Below are positions 2,435 through 43,258 of a stretch of 43,258 bases of DNA, in pieces. Position 1 is the first letter of the stretch. Every line of letters begins with the position of its first letter. The notes under the pieces were generated by a model, which made no database searches, was not told where the DNA came from, and saw only the letters and a program-made list of their open reading frames with translations. The translations under genes were made by a program, and so were the position numbers. This stretch comes from a virus (lineage: Duplodnaviria; Caudoviricetes), in IMG/VR virus record IMGVR_UViG_3300027740_000046, positions 1-43,258 of that record; one strand, 5' to 3'.

Positions 2435-2713
2435 TTATCTAATCTCGTATTCCTTCTTTAAGAATTTTAGCTCGTGTATTATATCACGCTGTAATTCGGT
2501 GCTACACGGTAGAGGATTCGTGCCTTCGATCGTATCGAGTTTATCACGGCCCTCTAAGTGACCGACAAGTTGGCTTAGTAAACCAATGATCCGGAGTATA
2601 TCTTTTCTATCCATTTTGTTCACTCCATATCGCGGTCGCGACTCATAAGCCGTCGCGCTGGCATTGGTTGCTGGCAAGGAGGGTATCGTCTCATCGGATA
2701 ACACTTCGGTCAT
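2435..2713 (-). CDS. Hypothetical protein; starts at 2713 (reads through repeat B) or at internal ATG 2614
   Basis: Both starts have an SD (GAGGAG; GGAG); the repeat translates as TNASATAYESR. Confidence 0.55.
   Translation of the reverse strand: MTEVLSDETIPSLPATNASATAYESRPRYGVNKMDRKDILRIIGLLSQLVGHLEGRDKLDTIEGTNPLPCSTELQRDIIHELKFLKKEYEIR
2635..2670 (-). repeat. Solo CRISPR repeat copy B
   Basis: Perfect 36/36 reverse-complement match to the array repeat. Confidence 0.97.
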
Positions 2714-5988: not shown

Positions 5989-6396
5989 ATGAAAGATAAA
6001 GAGCGTTTTGCGTCGTTGCGCGGTAGTTACCACGCAGACCCTTCGATGTTGGGCCGCTCGTTAGAAGCTCGTGGTCTTTACGCGTGCGGGTTGTCTTATT
6101 GCGCGGCATGGATGACAGACGGAAAAATTCCGAAAGCAATCGTCGGTTCGTGGTTCAGAGCGACACCAGATTGTCACGCGTTATGTCACGCGGAACATAA
6201 CGCGTCTGTCACACGAGAATTGCTTGTACGGCTGCCCCACGAGCGGCGACCAATGTGGTCCGAAGATGACGAATTTTATTGGGTCATAGCATATACAGAG
6301 CATAATTGGACGCGGAAAAGAATCGAAGACGAAAGGCTTAAAGCCGCGAAAAGACAAGCAAAACACAGGAGGAAGTCAGGCGATGATAATGAGTGA
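5989..6396 (+). CDS. Putative replication initiator, N-terminal-like protein
   Basis: ARGLY, TDGKIP, Y.EHN and basic AAKRQAKHR tail resemble phage initiator N-termini; precedes iterons and primase. Confidence 0.55.
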   Translation: MKDKERFASLRGSYHADPSMLGRSLEARGLYACGLSYCAAWMTDGKIPKAIVGSWFRATPDCHALCHAEHNASVTRELLVRLPHERRPMWSEDDEFYWVIAYTEHNWTRKRIEDERLKAAKRQAKHRRKSGDDNE

Positions 6397-6538
6397 CGTA
6401 ACGCGTGACGTAACGCGTGACGTAACGCGTGACGTAACGCGTGACGTAACGCGTGACATAACGCGTGACTCTCTCTTTCTCTTTCTACGTCTCTTTCTCT
6501 GTCTATCCGGATCCGGATACACCACGAGGAAATTGTGA
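6383..6538 (+). CDS. Short 51-aa ORF with (DVTR)n repeats
   Basis: AGGAGG SD; overlaps the upstream stop; its TGA overlaps the primase GTG. Confidence 0.4.
   Translation: MIMSDVTRDVTRDVTRDVTRDVTRDITRDSLFLFLRLFLCLSGSGYTTRKL
6393..6469. repeat. 12-bp tandem repeat GTGACGTAACGC, about 6.4 copies; candidate origin iterons
   Basis: Directly visible; exact 20-bp inverted copy at 6173-6192. Confidence 0.9.
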
Positions 6539-7500
6539 GCAGTAGAGACTACGCACGCGGGAGCAACAGCAATCTCTCTTTGGGGGGGAGCGCGCCGGCG
6601 TACCCCGTGACCGACCTGGTAGCCGACCTGGTAGCCCACGGCGCCGCGTTCGCCCGGCCGCTCGAGGTCGACGGCAAGGTCCACCGGTGCGCGACGGTGA
6701 CTCGCCCCCGGAAGAAGAATTTTTCCTACCTGCTCTATCCGGATGGTTGCGGTGGCTGGTACGAAAATCACGAGACCGGTGAGGGGCCCCAGCGCCTCTA
6801 CCTTGCCCCCGGCCGGAAAGCCGAGGCAACCACGGACCAGCGAGCGCAGTGGGCAACTCAGAGGTCGGAGCGCGCGGCGATGGCACGGAAAGCTCGAGTC
6901 GAGGCCCGAGCGCGGGCGAGGGCGATTTGCTCGCAAGCTCACCCGGCGCTACCGGATCACCCGTACCTCGAGAAAAAACAGATCAAGCCATACGAGCTGC
7001 TGCAACGCGGAGTCGAACTGGTCGCGCCGATTGTGTCGGTCGAGGGTGACGTCCAGACGATCGAGCGAATTTCTCCGCGTGGTGAAAAAAAGTTTTTGCC
7101 GGGCGGCGCGGTGGCAGGAAATTTTTACGCGCTAGGCGAAGTGTGGACTGGACGCCGGTTGTTGATTTGCGAGGGAGTAGCTACCGCTCACACGCTTTTC
7201 GAGTCCACCGGGTTGCCGACCGTTGCCGCGATGTTTGCCGGTAACCTTGAGCCCGTGACGCGCGTCATAAGCAAGATGGATAGACAATGTAAAATTCTAA
7301 TATGCGCTGACGACGACTGGAAAACCAAGGGCAACCCCGGACTAACCGCCGCGACCAAGGCCGCATCGGTGGTTGACGGCCGGGTTGTTATTCCCGACTT
7401 CATCGACTTGAAGCGCGGCGATAAAGACACCGATTTCAACGACCTGCAACTCTTAACCGGGCTACACGAGGTGAGGCGACAAATCATATGGGCTCTGTAG
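6535..7500 (+). CDS. Toprim-domain DNA primase (P4-alpha/TraC-like)
   Basis: Motifs HPYLEKK, GEKKFLPG, ICEGVATA, CADDD, GNPG, TDFNDL. Confidence 0.9.
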   Translation: MSSRDYARGSNSNLSLGGSAPAYPVTDLVADLVAHGAAFARPLEVDGKVHRCATVTRPRKKNFSYLLYPDGCGGWYENHETGEGPQRLYLAPGRKAEATTDQRAQWATQRSERAAMARKARVEARARARAICSQAHPALPDHPYLEKKQIKPYELLQRGVELVAPIVSVEGDVQTIERISPRGEKKFLPGGAVAGNFYALGEVWTGRRLLICEGVATAHTLFESTGLPTVAAMFAGNLEPVTRVISKMDRQCKILICADDDWKTKGNPGLTAATKAASVVDGRVVIPDFIDLKRGDKDTDFNDLQLLTGLHEVRRQIIWAL

Positions 7501-10022
7501 AACAAACCACGCTCGATTTCGGAGTGAAGCCCGAACGTCGCAACAAGCGCATCTTGCGAGCCTACCAAACCGCAGCGGTCGAGGCTATCGAGCGCGAGCT
7601 TACCACGAGTAAATCAACGCTAGTAGTCATGGCTACTGGGTTAGGTAAATCGGTAGTGCTCGGCGAGCTTGCCGCGAGGACCGCCGGAAACGTGCTCGTC
7701 CTGTCCCATCGAAACGAACTCGTGCGGCAGGTACGAGAACATCTGTGGGATGCATCTGGCGAGTGGACGGCTATCGAGCAGGGGCTACTACAGGCCGGAG
7801 AAGCTCGCTTAGTATCTGCCAGCGTGCAAACCATGGTACGGCGTTTAAAGAATTTTGACCAAGACTGGTTTGAGTTGATTGTGATTGACGAGTGTTTCCC
7901 GGCATGGACGATGATTGGCGATAAAAAGATCGAGGAGATTCGTGTTGGTGATTTGGTAGAAAGTTTTAATCACGCAACGGGGGAAGTAGAAAAAAAGAAG
8001 GTTGTTCGCCTATTCACGAAAAAAGCCACGGCTTTCGTCGGAATAAATTTCGGGGACGGTAACGATTTGGTATGCACTGTAAATCATCCGGTTTATATGA
8101 GAAGAGACGGAAAGGATAAATATGTCAAGGCGGAAAATATTGCAGCGGGCGACCTGTGTTGTATGCGGACTAGCGTTCGAGCGCGAGACGGACACGTCTC
8201 AGAGACCGCCGAGGGTATGCTCTCGGGAATGCCAGCGAAAGTTATCATCGACGACCATGGCGCGCACAAATCGAGCGTATGCATCGGAACGAATGCGGTT
8301 AAGAAATCCGATGAAGATAGAAAACGTTCGCGCATCTGTGAGCAAAACACTGAAACGAATCGGGCATCGTCCGCCGTGGCGGGGAGGGAATGGAACTGGT
8401 CCGACAATTCCGGAAGCGATGCTACTGGAAGAACTGGGAAACGGTTGGATTTGGAATCATTCGGTTGCGACGAAGATACCAAAAGGAAACGGATATCCGC
8501 GTTGTTACAAGATCGATGTGGCAAATCCGAAAAATCAAATAGCCGTAGAGGTAGACGGATCGAGCCATGCGGCACTAATCAGACGGGAGCAGGACAGGAA
8601 GAAAGACGGCTTTTTACGTGGTGCAGGGTGGAGAGTGTTGAGAGTATCGAATATCTGTGTGACGGGGGACTTGCCGTCTATAATCTCGAAGTTGAAGAAA
8701 ATAGCAACTACTTCGCCAACGGCTACTTAGTTCATAATTGTCATCATGCCGTAGCCAGTACCTACCGAAAAATCATAGAGCATTTCGGTGCGAGAATAGT
8801 GGGAGTAACCGCGACTCCGGATCGTGGCGACGGCACGGGACTACGCGGTATTTTTCAGACCGTAGCCTACGAAATGGGAATTGTACAAGGTGTCGAGGAC
8901 GGGTGGCTGGTGCCGCTCAAGGGTCAGCGTCGATTTATCGAGGGTATCCACCTAGAGAAGATAAAGAAAGTGGCCGGCGACCTCGCCCTCGGTGCGCTTG
9001 ACAACGAAATCGTGAACTCGAAAGTGGCGATAGCTCGCGATCTGGTAGCGCGACTGCAGGACAAGCACGCAATAGTTTTTACCCCTGGCGTTGAATCAGC
9101 GAAGTTGGTGTCCGCCGCGTTGAATGAGATTATACCGGGTTGCTCGCGTGAGGTAGACGGAAACACGAACGAAGACGAGCGGCGCGAATCGTTCGATCTA
9201 TTCAAATCGGGGCGTATAGGCTACCTAGTGAACTGCGCGATAGCCACGGAAGGAGTCGACCTTCCTGTCGCCGATGTGATCGCAATGTGCCGTCCGACGC
9301 TGTCACGCGCGTGTTATACGCAAATGGTCGGACGAGGTCTTCGATCACGATCCGCGGAGCTGGAAACGCTGAGCTTGCCCGAAGAGAGGAGGCTTGCGAT
9401 AGCTAGGAGCTGTAAACCGGACTGCCTGATTTTGGATTATGTCGGGAACTCGGGTAAGCACGACCTGATAGGTCCGGAGGATATTCTAGGCGCTGACGAA
9501 TCGGACGCGGTACGTAAGACCGCAAAGAAAATTATAAAAGAAAAATCGAATGCTGGCGAACAAATCGATATTCAAGAAGCTATTCGACTGGCCAAAAAAG
9601 CGCTGGCCGAGCTTGCCGATCGGCGCGTTGAAGCGAGGGTGCGCTCGCACGGGTTCGACCCGCTCGCGGCGTTTCTCCTAAAGGGGCGCCTACGGCCGGA
9701 CATGGATCAACGGATCGAGCCTCCCACGGCCGCGCAACTAGGAGCGCTGCTGAGATTCAAGTTGAAAGAGAGCGAACTGAAAGGGCTAACCAAGCGATCG
9801 GCCGGCGCGCTAATGGATAAACTAATCGAACGGAGTCGCCTTGGGCTGTGTTCTGCGGGACAGATGAGAGTGTTGATAAAATTCACGGACATATCACAAT
9901 CCGATCTCGCTAACGTTAGCTTCCCGCTAGCCAGCGCGATGATAGACAGGATAGCGAAATCAAACTGGAAACGCGGTTGGACGAGAGATGAATTATACCC
10001 GAAAGATAATTTTATTTATTAG
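7488..10022 (+). CDS. Superfamily 2 DExH helicase containing an intein
   Basis: LRAYQ, ATGLGKS, DE|CH (split), TATP, EGVD, QMVGRGLR. Confidence 0.93.
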   Translation: MGSVEQTTLDFGVKPERRNKRILRAYQTAAVEAIERELTTSKSTLVVMATGLGKSVVLGELAARTAGNVLVLSHRNELVRQVREHLWDASGEWTAIEQGLLQAGEARLVSASVQTMVRRLKNFDQDWFELIVIDECFPAWTMIGDKKIEEIRVGDLVESFNHATGEVEKKKVVRLFTKKATAFVGINFGDGNDLVCTVNHPVYMRRDGKDKYVKAENIAAGDLCCMRTSVRARDGHVSETAEGMLSGMPAKVIIDDHGAHKSSVCIGTNAVKKSDEDRKRSRICEQNTETNRASSAVAGREWNWSDNSGSDATGRTGKRLDLESFGCDEDTKRKRISALLQDRCGKSEKSNSRRGRRIEPCGTNQTGAGQEERRLFTWCRVESVESIEYLCDGGLAVYNLEVEENSNYFANGYLVHNCHHAVASTYRKIIEHFGARIVGVTATPDRGDGTGLRGIFQTVAYEMGIVQGVEDGWLVPLKGQRRFIEGIHLEKIKKVAGDLALGALDNEIVNSKVAIARDLVARLQDKHAIVFTPGVESAKLVSAALNEIIPGCSREVDGNTNEDERRESFDLFKSGRIGYLVNCAIATEGVDLPVADVIAMCRPTLSRACYTQMVGRGLRSRSAELETLSLPEERRLAIARSCKPDCLILDYVGNSGKHDLIGPEDILGADESDAVRKTAKKIIKEKSNAGEQIDIQEAIRLAKKALAELADRRVEARVRSHGFDPLAAFLLKGRLRPDMDQRIEPPTAAQLGALLRFKLKESELKGLTKRSAGALMDKLIERSRLGLCSAGQMRVLIKFTDISQSDLANVSFPLASAMIDRIAKSNWKRGWTRDELYPKDNFIY
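7893..8738 (+). mobile_element. Intein (282 aa) inserted in the helicase DECH motif
   Basis: Starts CFPAWT; block B CTVNHP; ends VYNLEVEENSNYFANGYLVHN followed by Cys. Confidence 0.93.
8122..8730 (+). CDS. Vsr/DUF559-like endonuclease nested in the +1 frame of the intein
   Basis: GGAAAGGA SD; CxxC...CSREC zinc motif; YKIDVA, IAVEVDGSSH, QDRKKDGFLRGAGWRVLRV. Confidence 0.85.
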   Translation: MSRRKILQRATCVVCGLAFERETDTSQRPPRVCSRECQRKLSSTTMARTNRAYASERMRLRNPMKIENVRASVSKTLKRIGHRPPWRGGNGTGPTIPEAMLLEELGNGWIWNHSVATKIPKGNGYPRCYKIDVANPKNQIAVEVDGSSHAALIRREQDRKKDGFLRGAGWRVLRVSNICVTGDLPSIISKLKKIATTSPTAT

Positions 10023-10236
10023 GAAATTGCGTAATGAACACCGATGGTAAAACCCACAAAGCCATACGTGAGCTAATCCTTGCCGGCCATCAGATCAACG
10101 CCGACGAGGTAACGATTAAACGCGCATGGCTACCCGATATAATCTCAATACTCAAAAAGTTCGGCGATGAAAAAGATAGCGAGCTAGTGGAAAAATTGGA
10201 GGCGCTAATAGGAAATTGCGTAATGAACACCGATGG
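10020..10236. repeat. 28-bp direct repeat pair (10020-10047 and 10209-10236)
   Basis: TAGGAAATTGCGTAATGAACACCGATGG occurs twice. Confidence 0.9.
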
Positions 10237-10285
10237 CAAATACCAACCAATGCCAGCGCGACGGCTTACGAATCGCGACAAATGA
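10034..10285 (+). CDS. Hypothetical protein; C-terminus reads through repeat C
   Basis: AGGA SD; ATGA overlap with the next gene. Confidence 0.55.
   Translation: MNTDGKTHKAIRELILAGHQINADEVTIKRAWLPDIISILKKFGDEKDSELVEKLEALIGNCVMNTDGKYQPMPARRLTNRDK
10244..10279 (+). repeat. Solo CRISPR repeat copy C
   Basis: CAACCAATGCCAGCGCGACGGCTTACGAATCGCGAC, 34/36. Confidence 0.95.
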
Positions 10286-10764
10286 GTATTTTATCTAAAA
10301 AAGTCCCGCTAGATTATCGGTATCCAGTCGATCCGCCATCGGCGCGCAAACGCCGTATGAAAAAAATAGACCTTACAAACCCGCCCGAATCGCACGAAAT
10401 GAAATGCCTGGCTCTGTATCTCAACGCGAGGTTCGGCGTGTACGGCTGGGCGAAGTACGTGGCCGAGCGCGTGCTGCGTAAGAGTGATTATGCATACTAC
10501 GACTCGCTGTTGGCGCAAGGTTTGAAGGTTGGTCATCCAGATGTAGTTATCTACATTAGCCCAACTACAAAAGTCTGCCGTGCTCCGATAGAGGTGATAT
10601 TTAAAGGCGCCGCGATAGAGGTCAAACGCCGGCGTGATTCCGAGGCGACCGAAGGACAACTCGCATGGGGCAAGGCTTTTGAGGACATGGACTACCTATT
10701 TTACGTGGCACATGGATATGACGACGCCAGGAGGTGGATAGAGAAATATTATGGCAAACCATAA
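10282..10764 (+). CDS. VRR-NUC domain nuclease
   Basis: GLKVGHPDVVI, IEVK, TEGQLAW motifs; start uncertain. Confidence 0.8.
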   Translation: MSILSKKVPLDYRYPVDPPSARKRRMKKIDLTNPPESHEMKCLALYLNARFGVYGWAKYVAERVLRKSDYAYYDSLLAQGLKVGHPDVVIYISPTTKVCRAPIEVIFKGAAIEVKRRRDSEATEGQLAWGKAFEDMDYLFYVAHGYDDARRWIEKYYGKP

Positions 10765-10777
10765 ACCGATTGAAGCC

Positions 10778-11172
10778 CCATCAATGCCAGCGCGATGGCT
10801 TACGAATCGCGACGGTACCGCTCCGAAAGACGGTAGAATAAAACAAGGAAAGGATAGATAAATGAAACATACAGCAATCCTATGGATGCGGTTGTTTGTT
10901 TCTAATGCCAGCGCGATGGCTTATGAATCGCGACGATATTTCTCAAAACGTCAAGCATTAAGACGTCATGCCGCGGAATGGGGCGTGCGGCCGCGATGGT
11001 ACGAGACAAACGCGAGGCTGAGAAAACGCATCCAGGCGGTTTTACGCAATCCGCCTGTGACTGACGATATACAGACTTTAAACCACAATGCCAGCGCGAT
11101 GGCTTATGAATCGCGACGCTCGGCCCGCGGGCGGCTCAATCAATGCCAGCGCGACGGCTTACGAATCGCGAC
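10778..11172 (+). CRISPR. Irregular cluster of four variant repeats: D 10778-10813, E 10899-10934, F 11082-11117, G 11137-11172
   Basis: All share the core AATGCCAGCGCGAYGGCTTAYGAATCGCGAC; gaps of 85, 147 and 19 nt. Confidence 0.85.
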
Positions 11173-11224
11173 CGTCGCAATTCATAAGCCGTGTAAAGGC
11201 ATAAAAAGGGAGCCCAAGAAATGA
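10862..11224 (+). CDS. Hypothetical protein reading through three CRISPR repeats
   Basis: AAGGAAAGGA SD; ATGA overlap with the next gene; NASAMAYESR occurs twice. Confidence 0.5.
   Translation: MKHTAILWMRLFVSNASAMAYESRRYFSKRQALRRHAAEWGVRPRWYETNARLRKRIQAVLRNPPVTDDIQTLNHNASAMAYESRRSARGRLNQCQRDGLRIATVAIHKPCKGIKREPKK
11174..11192 (+). other. Anti-repeat, an inverted partial copy of the CRISPR repeat
   Basis: GTCGCAATTCATAAGCCGT matches the reverse complement of the repeat 3' half at 17/19. Confidence 0.85.
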
Positions 11225-11748
11225 CCTGCCGCGATAGAGCGTGTATAATCTACGGTGTTTTTCTGATCGGCGTAGTCTGCTTTGAGCTGAGTACATGCCG
11301 TGGACCGGCGCGCGCGGACGACCGCCGATTATGGCTGGCGCGCTGCATGGTCGCCGAAGCGGGCTTTCGCGCCGGTCCGGACGATGGCGCCATAGCCGGC
11401 GTACTCATGAGCAAGGCCGCACGCTCCGGCAAGACCTTGGTCTGGATGGTCAGACACTACTGTCGCGGGCTTTACCGCGCGAATGCCTCTTGGCTGCGCT
11501 ACCTACGCGAGAGCCCGGTCCAGCCCCGCTACTGGCCCGTGCGGTGGGCTTGGTCCGAGTCGCGCGATGACTGGCTGGAAAAACTCGAACGCGCGCAGGC
11601 CGCGCTAGACGGGATACTCTACGACCCGTGTGACGGGGTCGCCTCGCATTGGCGCGGACCGCACGATAAAACCCCGGCGTGGTTCGAATCTGTCGATTGT
11701 GGGCGGACTAAAAATATATTCGGAAGAACGAAAGGAACTCGGAAATGA
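11221..11748 (+). CDS. Putative SleB/Hydrolase_2-like cell wall hydrolase
   Basis: Hydrophobic N-terminus; WLARCMVAEAG, DPCDGVASHW, P.W pattern. Confidence 0.55.
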   Translation: MTCRDRACIIYGVFLIGVVCFELSTCRGPARADDRRLWLARCMVAEAGFRAGPDDGAIAGVLMSKAARSGKTLVWMVRHYCRGLYRANASWLRYLRESPVQPRYWPVRWAWSESRDDWLEKLERAQAALDGILYDPCDGVASHWRGPHDKTPAWFESVDCGRTKNIFGRTKGTRK

Positions 11749-13241
11749 CAACGAAAGTTTTTAAATACGGAGCCTTACCAGTTACTCTCGATAGCGAGAT
11801 TCGCAAGAAAATGAAGTTAGCAAGGGAATATTACAATCAACTGGTAGAGGCAGAGAACGGTCGACGTAAAACGGTATGGGGCGGCGAGCGTCCCAAACAA
11901 CCTCCGCATGAGCACAAGGACGAGCCGGTTTGCGAAGAATGCAAAAAGCACTGGAAGGATATTAGAGACAAATATTTTGCTACACCACCCTTAGATATAA
12001 AACCATTGCGAGCGAAGGCATCGGAAGCGGGTTTGTATTGGGGGACGTATTTGATAATCGAAGAAAGTTTTTCCGCTGCTTGGAAGAAAACAGATGGGTT
12101 ATCAACCGTACGCTATAAATCCTGGCGAGATGGCGGAATAATGGGAGTACAATTACAGCAAGCGCATTCAGCAAATGGTTTCTATCGTATAGAGCAAGCG
12201 CCAGATCCGCGAAAAGGTCGTAAGGCTGGACAACGCCACGCGGTAAAGATAAGAATCGGAACCCGAGAAAACAAACCGGTATGGTCGGAACCTATCGCGT
12301 TCGAAATGCATCGTCCGTTACAAGGTCGGCCGACCTGGGTAAAGATTTGCTATTTCTATCGGGGCGAGCGTGAAATCTGGTCGGTGAATATTACCTGTAC
12401 AGACGTACCCGAACGGGCCTTGCCTGATACGGCTAAGGTTTTGGCGATCGATATCGGCTGGCGCGTTATGTCGGACGACAGCATTCGCGCGGCATATGCT
12501 AGAGACGAGAACGGTAACGAAAGCGAATTACTGTTTGATTCTCGTTGGAGGGAATGCGGAGATAGGGCGGATCGTATAAGATCGGCGCGAGACGATCGAC
12601 TAAACGAACTCAAGAAAAAAGATACTCGATTTAGTCTAATAAAAAAGCCGTCAGGCATACGTGGATATGTTGCGAAAAATTCGATAGAAGATACCGAGGT
12701 TACCGAGTGGATAAAACAGGATCGACACCTGGAACAATACGAATTAGGATGTCGCCGTCGAAGCGTAGCGGTCCGAAAAGAAAAATTACGGGTCTGGCTG
12801 TCGTCATTGAGAAAGCAATACGCTACGGCGATTATCAAGGATAGCAGTCACAAGGAAATGAAAGCCGCTAAACGGGCTAAGGCAGATGGTATGCCACCCC
12901 CGGCGCGGCGCAACGCTCACCATGGGGCGCCTGGCGAAATCGTCGAGGAAATCTGTCGTGCGTTCGGACGGCAGACGAATATTGCGATCGTTGAAGCTCC
13001 GGGGACGACTGCCACGTGCGCGAGTTGTGGCCAAGAGATGGAAATCGGCGCTGAATTGATGATTACGTGCGAGCGGTGCAATGCTCGTGAGGATAGAGAT
13101 TGCATAAGTACGCGGAATATGCTACGTTTGTACGCAAGTGGGAATTGCAAAAAACCCACCGCTCGAAAAACAATCGCAAGGTTCGCGAAAAGACACAAGA
13201 ATTATGTGGAGCCCAACCAATGCCAGCGCGACGGCTTATGA
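11745..13241 (+). CDS. cas12m: Compact type V CRISPR effector, Cas12m (V-U1)-like / TnpB superfamily; RuvC-II apparently degenerate
   Basis: N-terminal KVFKYG..YYNQLVE, GLYWGTY, MHRPL; RuvC-I LAIDIGWR; RuvC-II region AIIKD lacks the canonical E; CxxC-CxxC zinc ribbon; RuvC-III DRDCISTRNM; abuts a CRISPR array. Subtype is less certain than the type V call. Confidence 0.8.
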   Translation: MTTKVFKYGALPVTLDSEIRKKMKLAREYYNQLVEAENGRRKTVWGGERPKQPPHEHKDEPVCEECKKHWKDIRDKYFATPPLDIKPLRAKASEAGLYWGTYLIIEESFSAAWKKTDGLSTVRYKSWRDGGIMGVQLQQAHSANGFYRIEQAPDPRKGRKAGQRHAVKIRIGTRENKPVWSEPIAFEMHRPLQGRPTWVKICYFYRGEREIWSVNITCTDVPERALPDTAKVLAIDIGWRVMSDDSIRAAYARDENGNESELLFDSRWRECGDRADRIRSARDDRLNELKKKDTRFSLIKKPSGIRGYVAKNSIEDTEVTEWIKQDRHLEQYELGCRRRSVAVRKEKLRVWLSSLRKQYATAIIKDSSHKEMKAAKRAKADGMPPPARRNAHHGAPGEIVEEICRAFGRQTNIAIVEAPGTTATCASCGQEMEIGAELMITCERCNAREDRDCISTRNMLRLYASGNCKKPTARKTIARFAKRHKNYVEPNQCQRDGL

Positions 13242-13466
13242 GTCGCGACGCTCTCGGTGATACGTCGCCGGATTAAAGCGAGTACCAACCAATGCCAGCG
13301 CGACGGCTTATGAGTCGCGACGTCTGCGTGACGGCCGCCTGCGTGACGGCCGCGCGCCAACCAATGCCAGCGCGACGGCTTATGAGTCGCGACTCGTCCG
13401 CTAAAATAGCCGTTTTCTCGGCGGCGCCGACAACCAATGCCAGCGCGACGGCTTATGAGTCGCGAC
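13214..13466 (+). CRISPR. CRISPR mini-array: 4 identical 36-bp repeats, 3 spacers (36, 36, 37 bp)
   Basis: CAACCAATGCCAGCGCGACGGCTTATGAGTCGCGAC at 13214, 13286, 13358, 13431; stem CGCGAC/GTCGCG. Confidence 0.98.
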
Positions 13467-13488
13467 AATGGAATAGCCCGGACGGTAC

Positions 13489-13517
13489 TTGACACGTGTA
13501 GAAAATGCTACTATTTA
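13489..13517 (+). promoter_or_regulatory. Possible promoter for the packaging genes
   Basis: Perfect TTGACA with an AT-rich but imperfect -10 region. Confidence 0.35.
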
Positions 13518-13530
13518 TGTAGTAATCATT

Positions 13531-13896
13531 ATGCCAACCCCATTTTTCCAGCCAGGCGATCCGCGTTGCCACCGCGCCGGCAGACCCAAGGGGACAGCGC
13601 TCGAGAAAATGCGCAAGATGGCTGCCGAGGTGCTAGGCGAGGAGCTGGAAACGCCGACTGGGCGTATGACCCGCGCAAAAAAAATCTACCTAGCGGTATC
13701 GCAATTGGCCGAGGAGGGCAACGTCAAGGCCGCGACGTTTCTTTTCGTTTGGGCGTACGGTAAGCCGCCGCAGGCGATAGAAATTAAGAACAGCGAATCC
13801 GAACCGGGTAATCCTACGCGGTTCCAGCTGGTTATAAAAACACCGGAAGCACTAGATCGAGTAAACGCAGGGGGCGCGATAGAAGACGATGCCTGA
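13531..13896 (+). CDS. terS: Terminase small subunit-like (DUF5681-type)
   Basis: FQPGD...GRPKG, GNVKAA, GKPPQ; directly upstream of TerL. Confidence 0.75.
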   Translation: MPTPFFQPGDPRCHRAGRPKGTALEKMRKMAAEVLGEELETPTGRMTRAKKIYLAVSQLAEEGNVKAATFLFVWAYGKPPQAIEIKNSESEPGNPTRFQLVIKTPEALDRVNAGGAIEDDA

Positions 13897-15454
13897 TATT
13901 ACCTGGCAGCCCACGCAACTACGCGCAGCAAGGTCTACCGCGAATATACTAGTGTTTGGCGGGGAAGCCGGGGGCGGTAAGACTCGCTTCATTATTCAGT
14001 ACTTCGCGAACGCGATGCTACAATTTCCCGGATTTCAAGGCGTTATCTTCCGACGCACAACTCCTGAGATTCACGGCGCTGGCTCGCTGTGGGAAGAATC
14101 GCAAGAGGTGTTCCGCCCGATACCCGGCGCTACGGCGCGCGAGTCACCGACGTTTGAGTGGCGCCTCGGTCGGTCACTCGTAGAGTTCCGGCCTATGCAA
14201 TACGAGAGCGATATCTACGCACACCAGGGTAAGCAATACGGCGGCATAGCGTTTGATGAAGGCACCCGTTTTACAGCTAATCAAATCTGGTATCTCATGG
14301 GATCTCGTAATCGTAACGCTACCGCACCGGATGATTTCGTGCCGTTCACGATACTAACTGTAAATCCCGATCCAGATAGTCCGATAAAAAAGCTAATCGA
14401 ATGGTGGCTCGATGCGCCTGGTCAATACCCCCGTGCCGATCGCGATGGGGTATTGCGTTGGTTTGTGAGGTCGCGAAACGGTGAGATTTTTTGGGCCGAT
14501 ACTCCCGATCAACTTCCGGCTGAATCGGAACCGCGCTCGATGACATTTATTCGGTCTAGACTTAGCGATAATCAAGCGCTGCTTAAAAAAGATCCTGGTT
14601 ATAGGTCGCGCCTAGAAACACTGCTGCCCCACGAGCGCGCTCGGCTGTTGAAGGGCGACTGGCTAGCGCGACCAACGCAAGGAGATTTCTTTCAACGCGG
14701 TTGGTTTCGCGAGTTGGGCGATACCGACCTCAATCGGCGACTCAAGAAACACCCGAGCCTCGAGCGCGACATGGTCAAGGTCGTGCGCTGCTGGGACCTC
14801 GCGGCTACGCCCGTAAAAGGCTGCCTAGTGCCCGGAGTGCCGCGCCCTCCTGGTTTTATCGCGACCGAAAAAGAAGCCGACTGGACGCGCGGAGTAAAGC
14901 TCGGCCTGTTCCGTGGGCGTGATGTCGTAGTGCTCGATATGGTATCATGTCGGGATACGCCCGGCGCGGTCGATGAACTTATCCGCGAGACCGCACGGCG
15001 CGACGGACCTACCACGGTAATCGGCCTGCCGCAAGATCCGGGTCAGGCTGGCGTTGACCAGTTAGAACGCAAGAAAAAAGACCTACGCGGACTAGGGCGA
15101 GTAATAGGTTTGGTTCGCTCGCGCAACAAGGAGTTTTACGCACGTCCGGTTGCAACCTACGCCTATCAGCGACGCGTTTGGTTTAAGCTTGGAGCCTGGA
15201 ATGCTGACTTTTTTAATGAAATCGAGACCTTTCCGCCTCAAGAAAGATATCAGCATGATGATGTGGTAGACGCGTTTGCAGATGCGTTTCGGCTCGTAGA
15301 CACGCTGCCGCGGGCATATGGTTACGATCCCGTGCGCGATGTGAATCAGGATAATGAGAGTAAACGGCTAGAGGATTACTACCGCGACGACGATCCGGTT
15401 ATCGAGGATCGTATACGCGCGACGGTTGGGTTTGGTAGGAGAGACCTGCTATGA
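13889..15454 (+). CDS. terL: Terminase large subunit
   Basis: Walker A GGEAGGGKT, Walker B FDEG, TVNP, nuclease motifs WDLA and HDDVVDA. Confidence 0.95.
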   Translation: MPDITWQPTQLRAARSTANILVFGGEAGGGKTRFIIQYFANAMLQFPGFQGVIFRRTTPEIHGAGSLWEESQEVFRPIPGATARESPTFEWRLGRSLVEFRPMQYESDIYAHQGKQYGGIAFDEGTRFTANQIWYLMGSRNRNATAPDDFVPFTILTVNPDPDSPIKKLIEWWLDAPGQYPRADRDGVLRWFVRSRNGEIFWADTPDQLPAESEPRSMTFIRSRLSDNQALLKKDPGYRSRLETLLPHERARLLKGDWLARPTQGDFFQRGWFRELGDTDLNRRLKKHPSLERDMVKVVRCWDLAATPVKGCLVPGVPRPPGFIATEKEADWTRGVKLGLFRGRDVVVLDMVSCRDTPGAVDELIRETARRDGPTTVIGLPQDPGQAGVDQLERKKKDLRGLGRVIGLVRSRNKEFYARPVATYAYQRRVWFKLGAWNADFFNEIETFPPQERYQHDDVVDAFADAFRLVDTLPRAYGYDPVRDVNQDNESKRLEDYYRDDDPVIEDRIRATVGFGRRDLL

Positions 15455-18326: not shown

Positions 18327-19400
18327 ATGGCTTTCACCTGCCCTTCCTTACCGTCCCACCAATGCCAGCGCGACGGCTTACGAATCGCGACATGCTCGGA
18401 ATTCCCGGTACTAATCGACGGCGCGCTGCCGGAGTGGCTTGAGATAATTCCCCCCCCCGTGGATGGCGCGGTACGAGGTCGCGATGGGCGCGCGTATACC
18501 ATGCGTGATCCGGTTGCGGTCCTCGATGAATTCGTGCGACTCGGGCTGGATCTGCCGATCGATATCAACCACTCGTCGGAGCTGGCAGCACCACGGGGCG
18601 AAGAGAGTCCTGCCATGGGTTTCGTGACAGAGCTCGTGATCAAGCCGGGCGGCGGGATATGGGGCCGCGCGGAATGGACCGAGTACGGCCGTCGATGGCT
18701 TGCCGGAAATCCGTATAAATACGTATCTCCCGCGTTTCGGGTCGACGGCAAACAGATTTCGGAAAAGCTCGGCACGTTGGGTGAGGTGATCGCGCTGACG
18801 AGTATAGGCCTAACAAATAGGCCGAATTTTGATTTGATGGCGCTAAACGCTAAAAACGATAATAGCGAAATAAAATCGGAGGATAACCAGATGGATACGA
18901 AGAATTTTTTGACTACTCTAGGTTTGAAAGAAAACGCAACGCCGGAGCAAATCAAGGCGCGCATCGACGAACTGGTCGAAGCAGCGACCGTGCCCGTGCC
19001 CGCGCTAAATTCGCAGGAAGCAATCAACGCGCAGATTGATATCGCGGTACAAGCCGCGGTTAAGCCTCTGCAAGAACAAGCGCAAAAAGCACGTGCGATA
19101 GCGATCAACACCACGATCGATCGGTACGTGGCGCTCGGCAAGATCCAGCCGACCGCGGAGTCAAAGAAATTCTGGGCCGATAGCTGCGGCGATTCCGAGG
19201 ACGGGTTACTTCGCGTATCCAAGCATCTCGAATTGATGCCTAGTCTGGTCTCGACGAACGCTACACTACCGGGTCTTCCGCCGGAGCAAGGAGCGGGATC
19301 ACTAACCGATAGTCAGATTAAGATCTGTGACATGTTACAGATTTCACAGGACGATTATAAGAAAACCCTGGCCGCGCGTCAGGGGAAGGAAGGTAATTAA
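18327..19400 (+). CDS. Mu gp32 (I)-like prohead protease/scaffold
   Basis: PEWLEIIP, GRDGR, PIDINH, EWTEYG, YKYVSPAF, GLTNRP. Confidence 0.92.
   Translation: MAFTCPSLPSHQCQRDGLRIATCSEFPVLIDGALPEWLEIIPPPVDGAVRGRDGRAYTMRDPVAVLDEFVRLGLDLPIDINHSSELAAPRGEESPAMGFVTELVIKPGGGIWGRAEWTEYGRRWLAGNPYKYVSPAFRVDGKQISEKLGTLGEVIALTSIGLTNRPNFDLMALNAKNDNSEIKSEDNQMDTKNFLTTLGLKENATPEQIKARIDELVEAATVPVPALNSQEAINAQIDIAVQAAVKPLQEQAQKARAIAINTTIDRYVALGKIQPTAESKKFWADSCGDSEDGLLRVSKHLELMPSLVSTNATLPGLPPEQGAGSLTDSQIKICDMLQISQDDYKKTLAARQGKEGN
18356..18391 (+). repeat. Solo CRISPR repeat copy H inside the 5' end of the protease gene
   Basis: CCACCAATGCCAGCGCGACGGCTTACGAATCGCGAC, 33/36. Confidence 0.93.
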
Positions 19401-35067: not shown

Positions 35068-36519
35068 ATGCGTGCTGGATTACAAATACAATTAATAATC
35101 TCCAAGCGTTTACCGATAACGGCGGGAGAGGTTTTGCGTTTGTCTTTCGATCTCATCTCCTTTGCGAACGCGTCGAACGCGCGCTATGCGATTAATCCGG
35201 TAACGGGTGAGATTGTTGGACCATACGGAGCGGCCGTACTTGCGGAAATACCAGTAGCCGGTAGGCGGTGTTTGGTATTACGTGGGGCTGCTAATGCGTT
35301 TACAGACCTCGGTCAGCAATATAGCGAGGGTTATGTACTCGCTCTAGCCAGTCTTGGCGACGGAATAGCACTAGCCGGCACGGGTCCGAATGGTAAGATC
35401 CTACGCTCGACGAATCACGGGGCTACATGGACAGACCTCGGTCAGCAGTATAGTGAGGCTTATATACTCGCTCTAGCCAGTCTTGGCGACGGAATAGCAC
35501 TAGCCGGTACACGTCTGAATGGTAAGATCCTACGCTCGACGAATCACGGGGCTACATGGACAGACCTCGGTCAGCAATATAGCCAGAATTATATATTCGC
35601 TCTAGCCAGTCTTGGCGACGGAATAGCACTAGCCGGCACATGTCCGAATGGTAAGATCCTACGCTCGACGAATCACGGGGCTACATGGACAGACCTCGGT
35701 CAGCAATATAGCCAGACCGATGTACGCGCTCTAGCCAGTCTTGGCGACGGAATAGCACTAGCCGGCACGAGTCCGAATGGTAAGATCCTACGCTCGACGA
35801 ATCACGGGGCTACATGGACAGACCTCGGTCAGCAGTATAGCCAGACCGATATACTCGCTCTAGCCAGTCTTGGCGGCGGAATAGCACTAGCCGGCACGGG
35901 TACAAGCGGTAAGATACTACGCTCGACGAATCACGGGGCTACATGGACAGACCTCGGTCAGCAGTATAGTGAGGCTTATATATTCGCTCTAGGCAGTCTT
36001 GGCGGCGGAATAGCACTAGCCGGTACACATTCGGGCGGCAAGATACTACGTTCGAAGAATAATTCCTATTCTCAGTTTAAAGATCAAGCTTTTTACACGA
36101 CCGCTGTAGTCCCCGTTGCGTTTCGCAATCGTGTTTTATCTTTGCGCATACCCGAATATTCCAGCGCGGAATTAGCGCTGTGTACACCTGGAAGCAAACG
36201 CTATCTTTTTCGATATGCCGATAGCGGAGCGAATGCGTTCGGAGTTTATCTACTGAGCACCGATCAAAAACTCTACGCGGAAGTCAATGGTGTTAACGTA
36301 GCGGCGACTGCTACGGCCTGTACATGGTCGGCATATCAGCAAATCTGCGCTCGCGTGGATCGTGCAGCGGGTACTGTTGCGTTAACTGGTATGACCACGG
36401 GTGACGATGCGTTATCGTTTACGCCCCCGGCCGTGAGCAATGGTAATTTGTATCTGGGCATGGACGACAACGAAGCCAATCAGTTCGAAGGATTCTGCGC
36501 TGAACCGGAGTTATGGTAA
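35068..36519 (+). CDS. BNR/Asp-box beta-propeller protein, probably a virion appendage
   Basis: Six 43-aa repeats containing RSTNHGATW. Confidence 0.8.
   Translation: MRAGLQIQLIISKRLPITAGEVLRLSFDLISFANASNARYAINPVTGEIVGPYGAAVLAEIPVAGRRCLVLRGAANAFTDLGQQYSEGYVLALASLGDGIALAGTGPNGKILRSTNHGATWTDLGQQYSEAYILALASLGDGIALAGTRLNGKILRSTNHGATWTDLGQQYSQNYIFALASLGDGIALAGTCPNGKILRSTNHGATWTDLGQQYSQTDVRALASLGDGIALAGTSPNGKILRSTNHGATWTDLGQQYSQTDILALASLGGGIALAGTGTSGKILRSTNHGATWTDLGQQYSEAYIFALGSLGGGIALAGTHSGGKILRSKNNSYSQFKDQAFYTTAVVPVAFRNRVLSLRIPEYSSAELALCTPGSKRYLFRYADSGANAFGVYLLSTDQKLYAEVNGVNVAATATACTWSAYQQICARVDRAAGTVALTGMTTGDDALSFTPPAVSNGNLYLGMDDNEANQFEGFCAEPELW
35302..36055. repeat. 129-bp tandem repeat, about 5.8 copies
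   Basis: Units start at 35302, 35431, 35560, 35689, 35818, 35947. Confidence 0.95.
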
Positions 36520-41209: not shown

Positions 41210-41288
41210 CGGCGCCGACGTGGCGCCGATCGAGCTCTAGCGCTCGCCACGCCCCCCCGGCTGTCCGGGGGGACGGGACCAGAGCTAG
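41210..41288. repeat. 79-bp intergenic direct repeat, copy 1
   Basis: About 90% identical to 41537-41615; contains hairpin CCCCCGG-CTGT-CCGGGGG. Confidence 0.92.
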
Positions 41289-41536: not shown

Positions 41537-41615
41537 CGGCGCCGACACGGCACCGATCGAGCTCTAGCGCTCGCCACGCCCCCCCGGCTGTCCGGGGGAG
41601 CGGGACCAGTGCTAG
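41537..41615. repeat. 79-bp intergenic direct repeat, copy 2
   Basis: About 90% identical to 41210-41288. Confidence 0.92.
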
Positions 41616-42584: not shown

Positions 42585-42695
42585 GTCGCGACTCATAAGC
42601 CGTCGCGCTGGCATTGGTTGGCGCTACGCCGTGTAACGTGGCAGCAATTCTGCGCGCGCGTCGCGACTCATAAGCCGTCGCGCTGGCATTAATAG
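42585..42695 (-). CRISPR. Second mini-array: repeats J (42660-42695) and I (42585-42620) with one 39-bp spacer
   Basis: I is a perfect 36/36 copy; J matches over the 31-bp core. Confidence 0.92.
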
Positions 42696-42716: not shown

Positions 42717-43079
42717 TCAATTCAGCGGTCGAAACGTGATTACCACTACCTCGGGATCTGTAATACAGAGATTAGGGTGTAGTTGCCTCCATACGGAGAA
42801 ATAACCCGCCCGGGTAGGTGGCTCGACACATTCGGCGATGGCGTCTTCGTCCGTTAGATCGTACAAGGGCTCTATCTTTACACTCTCTATCCAAACATAA
42901 GCCTCCACGGCGGATAATCTTTTGCGTTTTAGGCCCACGCGCGTTTCGCTGCGCCAGCATAGGCCGCCGTCGGCTAGCCAGGATGAATCTTTCAGTAAGC
43001 GCCTGGTCTGCGTTTTCTTGCCAGACAGGCATAACTCAATCGCGTCAGCCCGGAATGACATTAATAGTGGGCGGCTCAT
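42717..43079 (-). CDS. ASCH/PUA-like domain protein
   Basis: LSGKKTQTRR, IESVKIEPLYDLTDEDAIAE, P.VVVITF. Confidence 0.82.
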   Translation of the reverse strand: MSRPLLMSFRADAIELCLSGKKTQTRRLLKDSSWLADGGLCWRSETRVGLKRKRLSAVEAYVWIESVKIEPLYDLTDEDAIAECVEPPTRAGYFSVWRQLHPNLCITDPEVVVITFRPLN

Positions 43080-43096: not shown

Positions 43097-43258
43097 CCGG
43101 TCGCGACTCATAAGCCGTCGCGCTGGCATTGGTTGCCGCTGACCGGTAGCGGCCGCTACTGCTTCGCTAGCACGGTTATATTCGATAAGCCTCTTTGATT
43201 TCATCGAATAGCGCCGAGGCGCGTTGCGTTAACTCATCGAGTTTGTCTCTGTGCTCCC
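43097..43258. repeat. Terminal direct repeat / circular assembly overlap, right copy
   Basis: Matches 1-162 with one mismatch. Confidence 0.95.
43100..43135 (-). repeat. Solo CRISPR repeat copy A
   Basis: Perfect 36/36 reverse-complement match. Confidence 0.97.

Follow-up and report, generated by a model that had tools for sequence, protein, structure and literature searches.

Why should a CRISPR repeat that stands ahead of a hydrolase gene and a cas gene be followed, after a single nucleotide, by an inverted copy of its own 3′ half? The question is raised by the window, the whole stretch of 43,258 nt analysed here, in which the repeat that we call G is the final repeat ahead of the hydrolase-cas12m genes. 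The original prediction held that the downstream anti-repeat could refold G into a long hairpin excluding the normal crRNA stem, and offered as possible roles an RNA switch or attenuator of cas expression, a tracr-like or decoy RNA, and, with less conviction, a guide aimed at the repeats themselves. The elements concerned are the following:

10862..11224, plus strand, a 120-codon open frame with an RBS-like sequence, which passes through the anti-repeat as well as repeats E, F and G and ends in an overlap (ATGA) with the hydrolase start
11137..11172, plus strand, repeat G, a V-M-type crRNA handle (38.6 bits), last of the D-E-F-G cluster, with a C19.A29 mismatch at the top of its stem
11174..11192, plus strand, the anti-repeat core, a complement of repeat positions 18-36 (the 3′ strand of the pseudoknot, the loop and the 3′ arm of the stem) across a 1-nt centre (C) at 11173
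11193..11202, plus strand, the trailing segment, 5 non-complementary nt followed by GGCAT, which faces the pseudoknot 5′ strand
11208..11212, plus strand, the GGGAG ribosome-binding site of the hydrolase gene, assigned from sequence and lying beyond the hairpin
11221..11748, plus strand, a putative cell-wall hydrolase gene (Hydrolase_2-like) with a hydrophobic N-terminus (ESM Atlas score 0.94)
11745..13241, plus strand, the gene of a Cas12m-like effector of 498 aa (RuvC D236-K365-D452), with its stop codon within the first array repeat
13214..13466, plus strand, the CRISPR array, four repeats and three spacers of 36-37 nt, with an unmasked terminal repeat

The window is a 43-kb phage genome, circular because of a 162-nt terminal overlap (1-162 and 43097-43258), and it encodes Mu-like head genes, a terminase, RecT/YqaJ and a helicase. 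The two copies of the overlap differ once, inside the first 5 nt of a repeat. Further features observed along the genome are an intein in the helicase ORF (7488-10022; Pfam Intein_splicing), a 12-nt self-complementary tandem repeat upstream of a primase-like gene (6387-6470; possibly origin iterons), a late gene with six 129-nt repeats (35173-36117), and, towards the end of the late region, a pair of 79-nt direct repeats (41210-41288 and 41537-41615). One Logan unitig covers 11143-13243 with every letter identical, and is not independent because its run, X1, may be the source sample; the contigs of run X2, with 84% of the run covered, leave a gap at 11206-13215 that carries no evidential weight. 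In other contigs of the sample, a different T-rich flank precedes the repeat (window 10904 and 13219), which suggests a related strain.

Judged by sequence and profile comparison, the effector is a type V-M Cas12m-like protein, with full-length homology, an adjoining array of 36-nt pseudoknotted repeats and a non-canonical RuvC triad. Its best match of solved structure is Cas12m (PDB 23vw; E 7.5e-22, phmmer), and a 45-sequence alignment of its clade (A1), compared with MsCas12m by hhalign, reached a probability of 99.9 and an E-value of 3e-36 over 459 columns. Residues D236, K365 and D452 align with D274, E429 and D518 of MsCas12m, and the RuvC triads given for Cas12m do not include D-K-D in the part of the published text consulted (PMC10442227; here and below, published sources are cited from part of their text). 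Because of the D-K-D at its RuvC positions, the effector is likely to be nuclease-dead. In line with the assignment, the repeats of the MsCas12m locus score 17.5-28.6 bits on the phage repeat-family model. The cas12m stop codon lies in the first repeat (13214-13241) and many homologues have QCQRDGL-like ends, which together point to an overlap of gene and array across the clade. Distant homologues in GTDB, present in 3/401 genomes of one class, are uninformative, and phage-borne Cas12m has been reported only recently (bioRxiv 10.64898/2026.09.14.751636).

Spacer 1 (13250-13285) has a perfect match in both runs, on a 2.9-kb contig of the same sample, and the 5′ flank there ends in GTC (a single case). 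Spacer 2 (13322-13357), which has a tandem duplication inside it, matches a contig of 134 nt at all but 3 positions. No further usable protospacer came from 411 spacers searched among the stored loci. Upstream of the effector, the hydrolase gene product matches neither Pfam nor PHROG and has no protein-database homologue within the lengths searched; the Atlas match is the sole basis of its putative SleB-like reading. The open frame at 10862-11224 likewise has no protein-database homologue within the lengths searched, and 2% of shuffles leave it open. At 11221-11249 lies a promoter-like site that matches at 10/12 positions, with 6 such sites found against 3.4 +/- 2.2 by chance, which is not above chance.

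The window holds 14 distinct 36-nt repeats, 4 in the array and 10 dispersed. Besides G, the dispersed copies are:

2635..2670, minus strand, repeat m4, upstream of the YqaJ-RecT genes, with an RBS and ATG directly after it
10244..10279, plus strand, repeat C, in the last codons of the ORF 10034-10285 and 2 nt before the ATG at 10282
10778..10813, plus strand, repeat D, 13 nt past the stop of an endonuclease-like gene, followed by a small hairpin and an 85-nt gap to E
10899..10934, plus strand, repeat E, with a 147-nt gap to F
11082..11117, plus strand, repeat F, an alternative partner of the anti-repeat, separated from G by a 19-nt spacer (11118-11136)
18356..18391, plus strand, repeat P, in frame within the first codons of the head maturation protease ORF
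42585..42695, minus strand, the mini-array m2 - 39 nt - m3, with promoter-like sequence before it and a strong hairpin after the last repeat
43100..43135, minus strand, repeat m1, directly before an RBS and the ATG at 43079, with its copy in the terminal overlap at 4-39

All 14 are in the sense orientation to their neighbouring ORFs, which points to relevance at the RNA level, and C, m1 and m4 lie within 20 nt of an RBS or ATG, while P sits inside the protease ORF. We regard these sense-oriented repeats at gene starts as a more surprising feature than the anti-repeat. As a side observation, G (11137-11172) and P (18356-18391) are both read in the frame in which a TGA stop interrupts the array repeat, a stop that T26C abolishes in both of them; C and D also carry T26C, without a stop to be removed.

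The anti-repeat itself was confirmed as originally described: it begins 1 nt after G, occupies 11174-11192 and ends 28 nt before the ATG at 11221. Of its 19 positions, 17 are complementary to G, the exceptions being repeat positions 26 and 31, and 17 likewise to the array repeat, where the exceptions are 29, which forms a G-U pair in RNA, and 31; together with G it makes the top 19-bp inverted repeat with a centre of <=7 nt in the whole window. Beyond the core, GGCAT at 11198-11202 pairs with ATGCC at 11143-11147; the chance of such a 5-mer at five offsets is about 0.5%, and the pairing implies an inverted copy of about 30 nt whose middle has been replaced. The anti-repeat thus pairs with both strands of the pseudoknot and, in the stem, with the 3′ arm but not the 5′ arm. 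Because the segment facing the 5′ stem arm is replaced, the anti-repeat does not form a minus-strand handle (no match to the model), and its own fold is weaker than that of a perfect copy (-4.5 against -7.2).

What a handle should look like in this family is clear from 39 repeats, in which a 6-bp stem and a 3-bp pseudoknot covary: 93.7% of the cells are paired, all 9 pairs have two-sided changes, and covariation is 0.765 against <=0.151 for slid controls (paired <=38.7%). This structure matches the pseudoknotted scaffold solved for Cas12m2 (PMC10442227). Folding, computed with neither pseudoknot nor protein binding, predicts that at G it gives way to the hairpin, as the original prediction supposed. 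The 56-nt RNA of G and anti-repeat folds at -20.2 kcal/mol (z -3.1; 2/200 shuffles as good) and the segment 11137-11225 at -29.1 kcal/mol (z -3.85; 0/200 shuffles as good), and in the predicted fold the probability of the handle stem at G is 0.000. Two C.A mismatches and an internal loop interrupt the plus-strand helix, and the minus-strand hairpin is more stable, at -35.5 kcal/mol. When 11082-11225 is folded, the anti-repeat pairs with F rather than G, the choice of partner varying with the extent of the RNA; the duplex energies are -33.1 kcal/mol with array-type repeats, -31.3 with F and E, and -28.7 with G.

The cost of forcing the handle singles out G. With the repeat and 36 nt downstream it is 14.9 kcal/mol, against 0-2.4 at the 13 other copies of the phage; with 30 nt downstream it is 14.3, against means of 1.3 for 428 internal and 2.1 for 56 terminal units in 48 related loci. 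The terminal units of those loci misfold slightly more than the internal ones (2.1 vs 1.3 kcal/mol, one-sided p 0.03). The array terminal repeat, C, P, m1 and m4 are all largely unmasked, so masking is not a general need. As the RNA lengthens, the handle, in a model that omits pseudoknot and protein, is stable to 4 nt past G and loses at equilibrium from 6 nt onwards; the barrier is predicted at 8-13 kcal/mol. The accessibility of the hydrolase RBS is 0.44-0.52 in one state and 0.61 in the other (free vs blocked).

The comparison loci encode proteins with 39-53% identity to the effector, supplemented by more distant V-M-like loci. Downstream matches were surveyed at 484 repeat units in the 48 loci that remained once 21 others (the window's own copies, two false arrays and near-duplicates) had been excluded in advance. 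A match score of at least 12 was found in 2 of the 484 units, against 0.02 expected, and both are internal spacers; G scores 13-14. No terminal or solo unit in the 48 loci has an anti-repeat scoring at least 12 against its own repeat (0/56), none of 84 further units in 16 loci reaches a score of 9, and the close-clade loci, three of which have no array on the contig and several of which include little upstream DNA, have no antisense copy beside a repeat. The original prediction had linked an incidental origin to absence from relatives combined with no effect of mutation. The absence holds at 39-53% protein identity, and is not decisive for want of a true sister phage: pattern and protein scans of IMG/VR gave none beyond the L085 contig (or L086), and that contig, 99.994% identical over 17,351 nt, is not independent.

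The most instructive relative is L103, where a normal 36-nt internal spacer (12139-12174) ends in a 21/21 reverse complement of the repeat, which means that V-M arrays do take up repeat DNA in reverse. The 15 nt flanking it match no spacer of that array, and a second spacer of L103 (11875-11910) ends in an 8/8 reverse-complement match to the repeat 3′ end. Both look as if captured from the repeat-spacer junction of another array, for which no source was found in IMG/VR. A 12-nt anti-repeat match in L099 was discounted, since its reverse complement reads like GC-rich coding sequence and may be a coding chance. An origin by hairpin opening, of the P-nucleotide type, was rejected: across 46 loci, the starts of 375 spacers show no excess of short palindromes. 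The related loci often contain degenerate or partial repeats. Cas12m handles also recur in cas leaders: an unmasked solo repeat stands 18 nt ahead of the cas12m start in L083, 59 nt ahead in L013 and 97 nt ahead in L039. With these three included, solo V-M repeats stand a short distance ahead of start codons at L013 639, L083 365, L039 184, L063 345, L042 7527 and L077 6542. Other observations from these loci are a full repeat inside the cas12m reading frame of L006 (1418-1453; an insertion or assembly artefact) and, in L028, L040 and L102, V-M-like arrays whose repeats diverge strongly and many of whose spacers measure 10-14 nt.

Our preferred reading, tentative and with a probability of roughly 45%, is that an inverted copy arose by accident and may have been kept as a trailer-side mask against extraneous crRNA or self-processing, in the manner of leader-repeat hairpins. 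Left unmasked, G would present Cas12m with a handle and a cut site 48 nt before the hydrolase start codon; folded back on G in the RNA, the anti-repeat would hide that handle, and so would likely shield the leader of the hydrolase-cas12m message from being loaded and cut by Cas12m and likely prevent the production of an extraneous guide at G. The copy would have arisen from repeat DNA captured as a spacer, as in L103, or from a template switch in replication, and would have been retained because the mask is useful. The biochemistry of Cas12m, which binds a handle of this kind, uses a single crRNA and no tracrRNA, cuts pre-crRNA within the repeat, upstream of the handle, and binds DNA but leaves it uncut (PMC11013384, PMC10442227), is compatible with such a role. 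So is the fate of outermost repeats elsewhere: the 3′-terminal repeat of Cas12a arrays gives an extraneous crRNA (PMC6610086), and in types II-A and VI a flanking hairpin blocks the extra repeat (PMC13187072).

Several points weigh against masking. The published fix in repeat-guide systems is a simple mutation of the last repeat (PMC13187072), which looks cheaper than an inverted copy. The reading is weakened because the anti-repeat is not conserved among terminal, solo and further units, and because anti-repeats turn up inside arrays too, as internal spacers with the look of accidents (L103). The promoter-like site at 11221-11249 may drive cas12m separately, uncoupled from G, and ribosomes on the 10862-11224 frame could unwind the hairpin.

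The main rival, which we consider somewhat doubtful, keeps the accident and drops the use: whether duplicated in inverted orientation or captured as a spacer from repeat DNA, the segment would fold in the RNA yet be tolerated, unselected and decaying. Its absence from all relatives examined, the 21/21 spacer of L103 and the frequency of partial and degenerate repeats in these loci all suit such a history, as does the nature of the two substitutions relative to G, both of them CG-to-TG transitions on the minus strand that give C.A mismatches in the plus-strand RNA. Chance alone fits less well with a position at the one terminal repeat before the cas12m unit, with a match score so rarely reached by other units, and with changes concentrated in the 6 nt opposite the 5′ stem arm, the pairing of both pseudoknot strands being preserved (a single case). 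A regulatory role could take two forms. The broader one, which we hold to be unlikely, treats Cas12m repeats as mRNA operators: the ten sense repeats at gene starts and in ORFs would let nuclease-dead Cas12m cut or cap chosen messages, with G and its anti-repeat as a co-transcriptional switch, responsive to the Cas12m level, that gates the hydrolase-cas12m operon. The narrower one, quite unlikely, is a kinetic switch sensing Cas12m, in which G folds first during transcription, is captured by Cas12m when the protein is abundant, so that the message is cut or capped, and is refolded by the anti-repeat when it is scarce, giving negative feedback on hydrolase-cas12m. The folding course along the growing RNA and its predicted barrier are consistent with this switch, and so are the solo repeats before cas12m in 3 related loci and the other phage copies placed directly before an RBS or ATG; yet the capture window would span only a few nucleotides of transcription, RBS accessibility is nearly the same in the two states, and the arrangement is not conserved.

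That the segment is an acquired spacer, guiding Cas12m to the repeats of a competing phage or of this phage itself, is very unlikely, in agreement with the low standing given to self-guidance originally. The L103 spacer, which spans a repeat-spacer junction of another array, gives it a precedent, and the anti-repeat has a set of alleles found in no copy of the phage's own; a weak repeat-like sequence also begins about 42 nt after G, at the hydrolase start, though it has many gaps and is borderline, 1.4% of background windows matching as well. Against these stand the missing protospacer in IMG/VR beyond the same phage, the flanks of the phage's own repeats, none of which (0/14) has a TTN PAM or one ending in TC (assumed PAMs, from which the true PAM of the effector may differ), and the fact that such a guide would pair with its own handle. 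Among the 14 downstream sequences searched against the phage (<=2 mismatches in 14, <=5 in 20), nothing convincing emerged except the anti-repeat. A tracr-like RNA, or an antisense RNA acting in trans on the repeats of array crRNAs, is highly improbable: its duplex with the array repeat (-33.1 kcal/mol) is stronger than that with G (-28.7), but Cas12m works with a single crRNA (PMC11013384), relatives of the same repeat family do without an anti-repeat, G or F would sequester it in cis, and in 10000-14000 there is no Rfam match and no promoter-like or terminator-like site bounding it. The tracr-like role of the original prediction is therefore disfavoured. Least probable of all is that the segment, independently of any recognition by Cas12m, serves as an intrinsic terminator, an attenuator or a site for RNase III. 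A long hairpin, stable on both strands and lying between genes, would invite this reading, but no U-tract follows it on either strand and the plus-strand helix is broken by its two C.A mismatches and internal loop. The classical attenuator proposed at the outset fares no better, as the hairpin is followed by an A-tract rather than a U-tract, no terminator-like site occurs on either strand and RBS accessibility changes little.

If the masking reading is true, a trailer-side hairpin would be a second solution to the last-repeat problem of repeat-guide type V systems, a counterpart of the leader-repeat hairpins in types II-A and VI; should the anti-repeat be accidental, V-M phage arrays would still be shown to acquire inverted copies of their repeats repeatedly. 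Either way, one genome offers a natural pair of masked and unmasked Cas12m handles, and the action of Cas12m on repeats embedded in mRNA becomes directly testable. In the open-access full-text literature searched, we found no report of a trailer-side anti-repeat for Cas12m.

Some stand-alone repeats have been described in similar settings: regulatory mini-arrays resembling crRNAs and solitary repeat units also occur upstream of cas genes and in phage genomes (bioRxiv 10.1101/2023.03.03.530964; 10.1101/2024.10.29.618823). In contrast to regulatory mini-arrays of the scaRNA/CreR type, the guide that G would yield has no PAM-flanked promoter target, its only targets being repeats, and in contrast to solitary repeat units that act as RNA anti-CRISPRs, mimicking a host repeat to sequester host Cas, the repeats of this phage match its own array. 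Like characterised type V-M systems (MmCas12m, GoCas12m and MsCas12m; PMC11013384, PMC10442227), this one combines an effector homologous to MsCas12m over its full length with 36-nt repeats that form a pseudoknot and an array that immediately follows the gene; it differs from them in its effector length of 498 aa, its RuvC D-K-D, its phage-borne location and its 10 repeats dispersed at gene starts and inside ORFs.

Anti-repeats are also part of the tracrRNAs of types II and V-B/E/F. The common feature is a complementarity of about 19 nt to the repeat 3′ half. Unlike a tracrRNA, the anti-repeat of G lies in cis and downstream, would destroy the scaffold instead of building it, belongs to an effector family that needs none, and is missing from the relatives examined.

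Closer in kind are the ways in which outermost repeats are silenced. The terminal-repeat crRNA of Cas12a (PMC6610086) and the ecrRNA of type II-C (PMC12080349) present the same problem, a last repeat and its trailing sequence forming an unintended guide; the published solution in type V-A is mutation of the terminal repeat, and in II-C terminators, repeat mutation or a hairpin in the guide (PMC12080349), whereas in the phage the handle itself is predicted to be paired. The leader-repeat hairpins of VI-B and other Cas13 subtypes, and of II-A as cited there (PMC13187072), likewise have a flank that pairs with an extra repeat and disrupts the structure bound by the effector, as predicted here. 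They lie on the leader side, at the first repeat of guide-repeat systems, whereas the hairpin of G lies on the trailer (3′) side of a repeat-guide V-M system; its anti-repeat, moreover, inverts nearly the whole repeat around a 1-nt centre, lies in the leader of protein-coding genes, is phage-borne, and is neither conserved nor enriched across its family. On these grounds, the hairpin of G would work like a leader-repeat hairpin and yet is not a member of that class.
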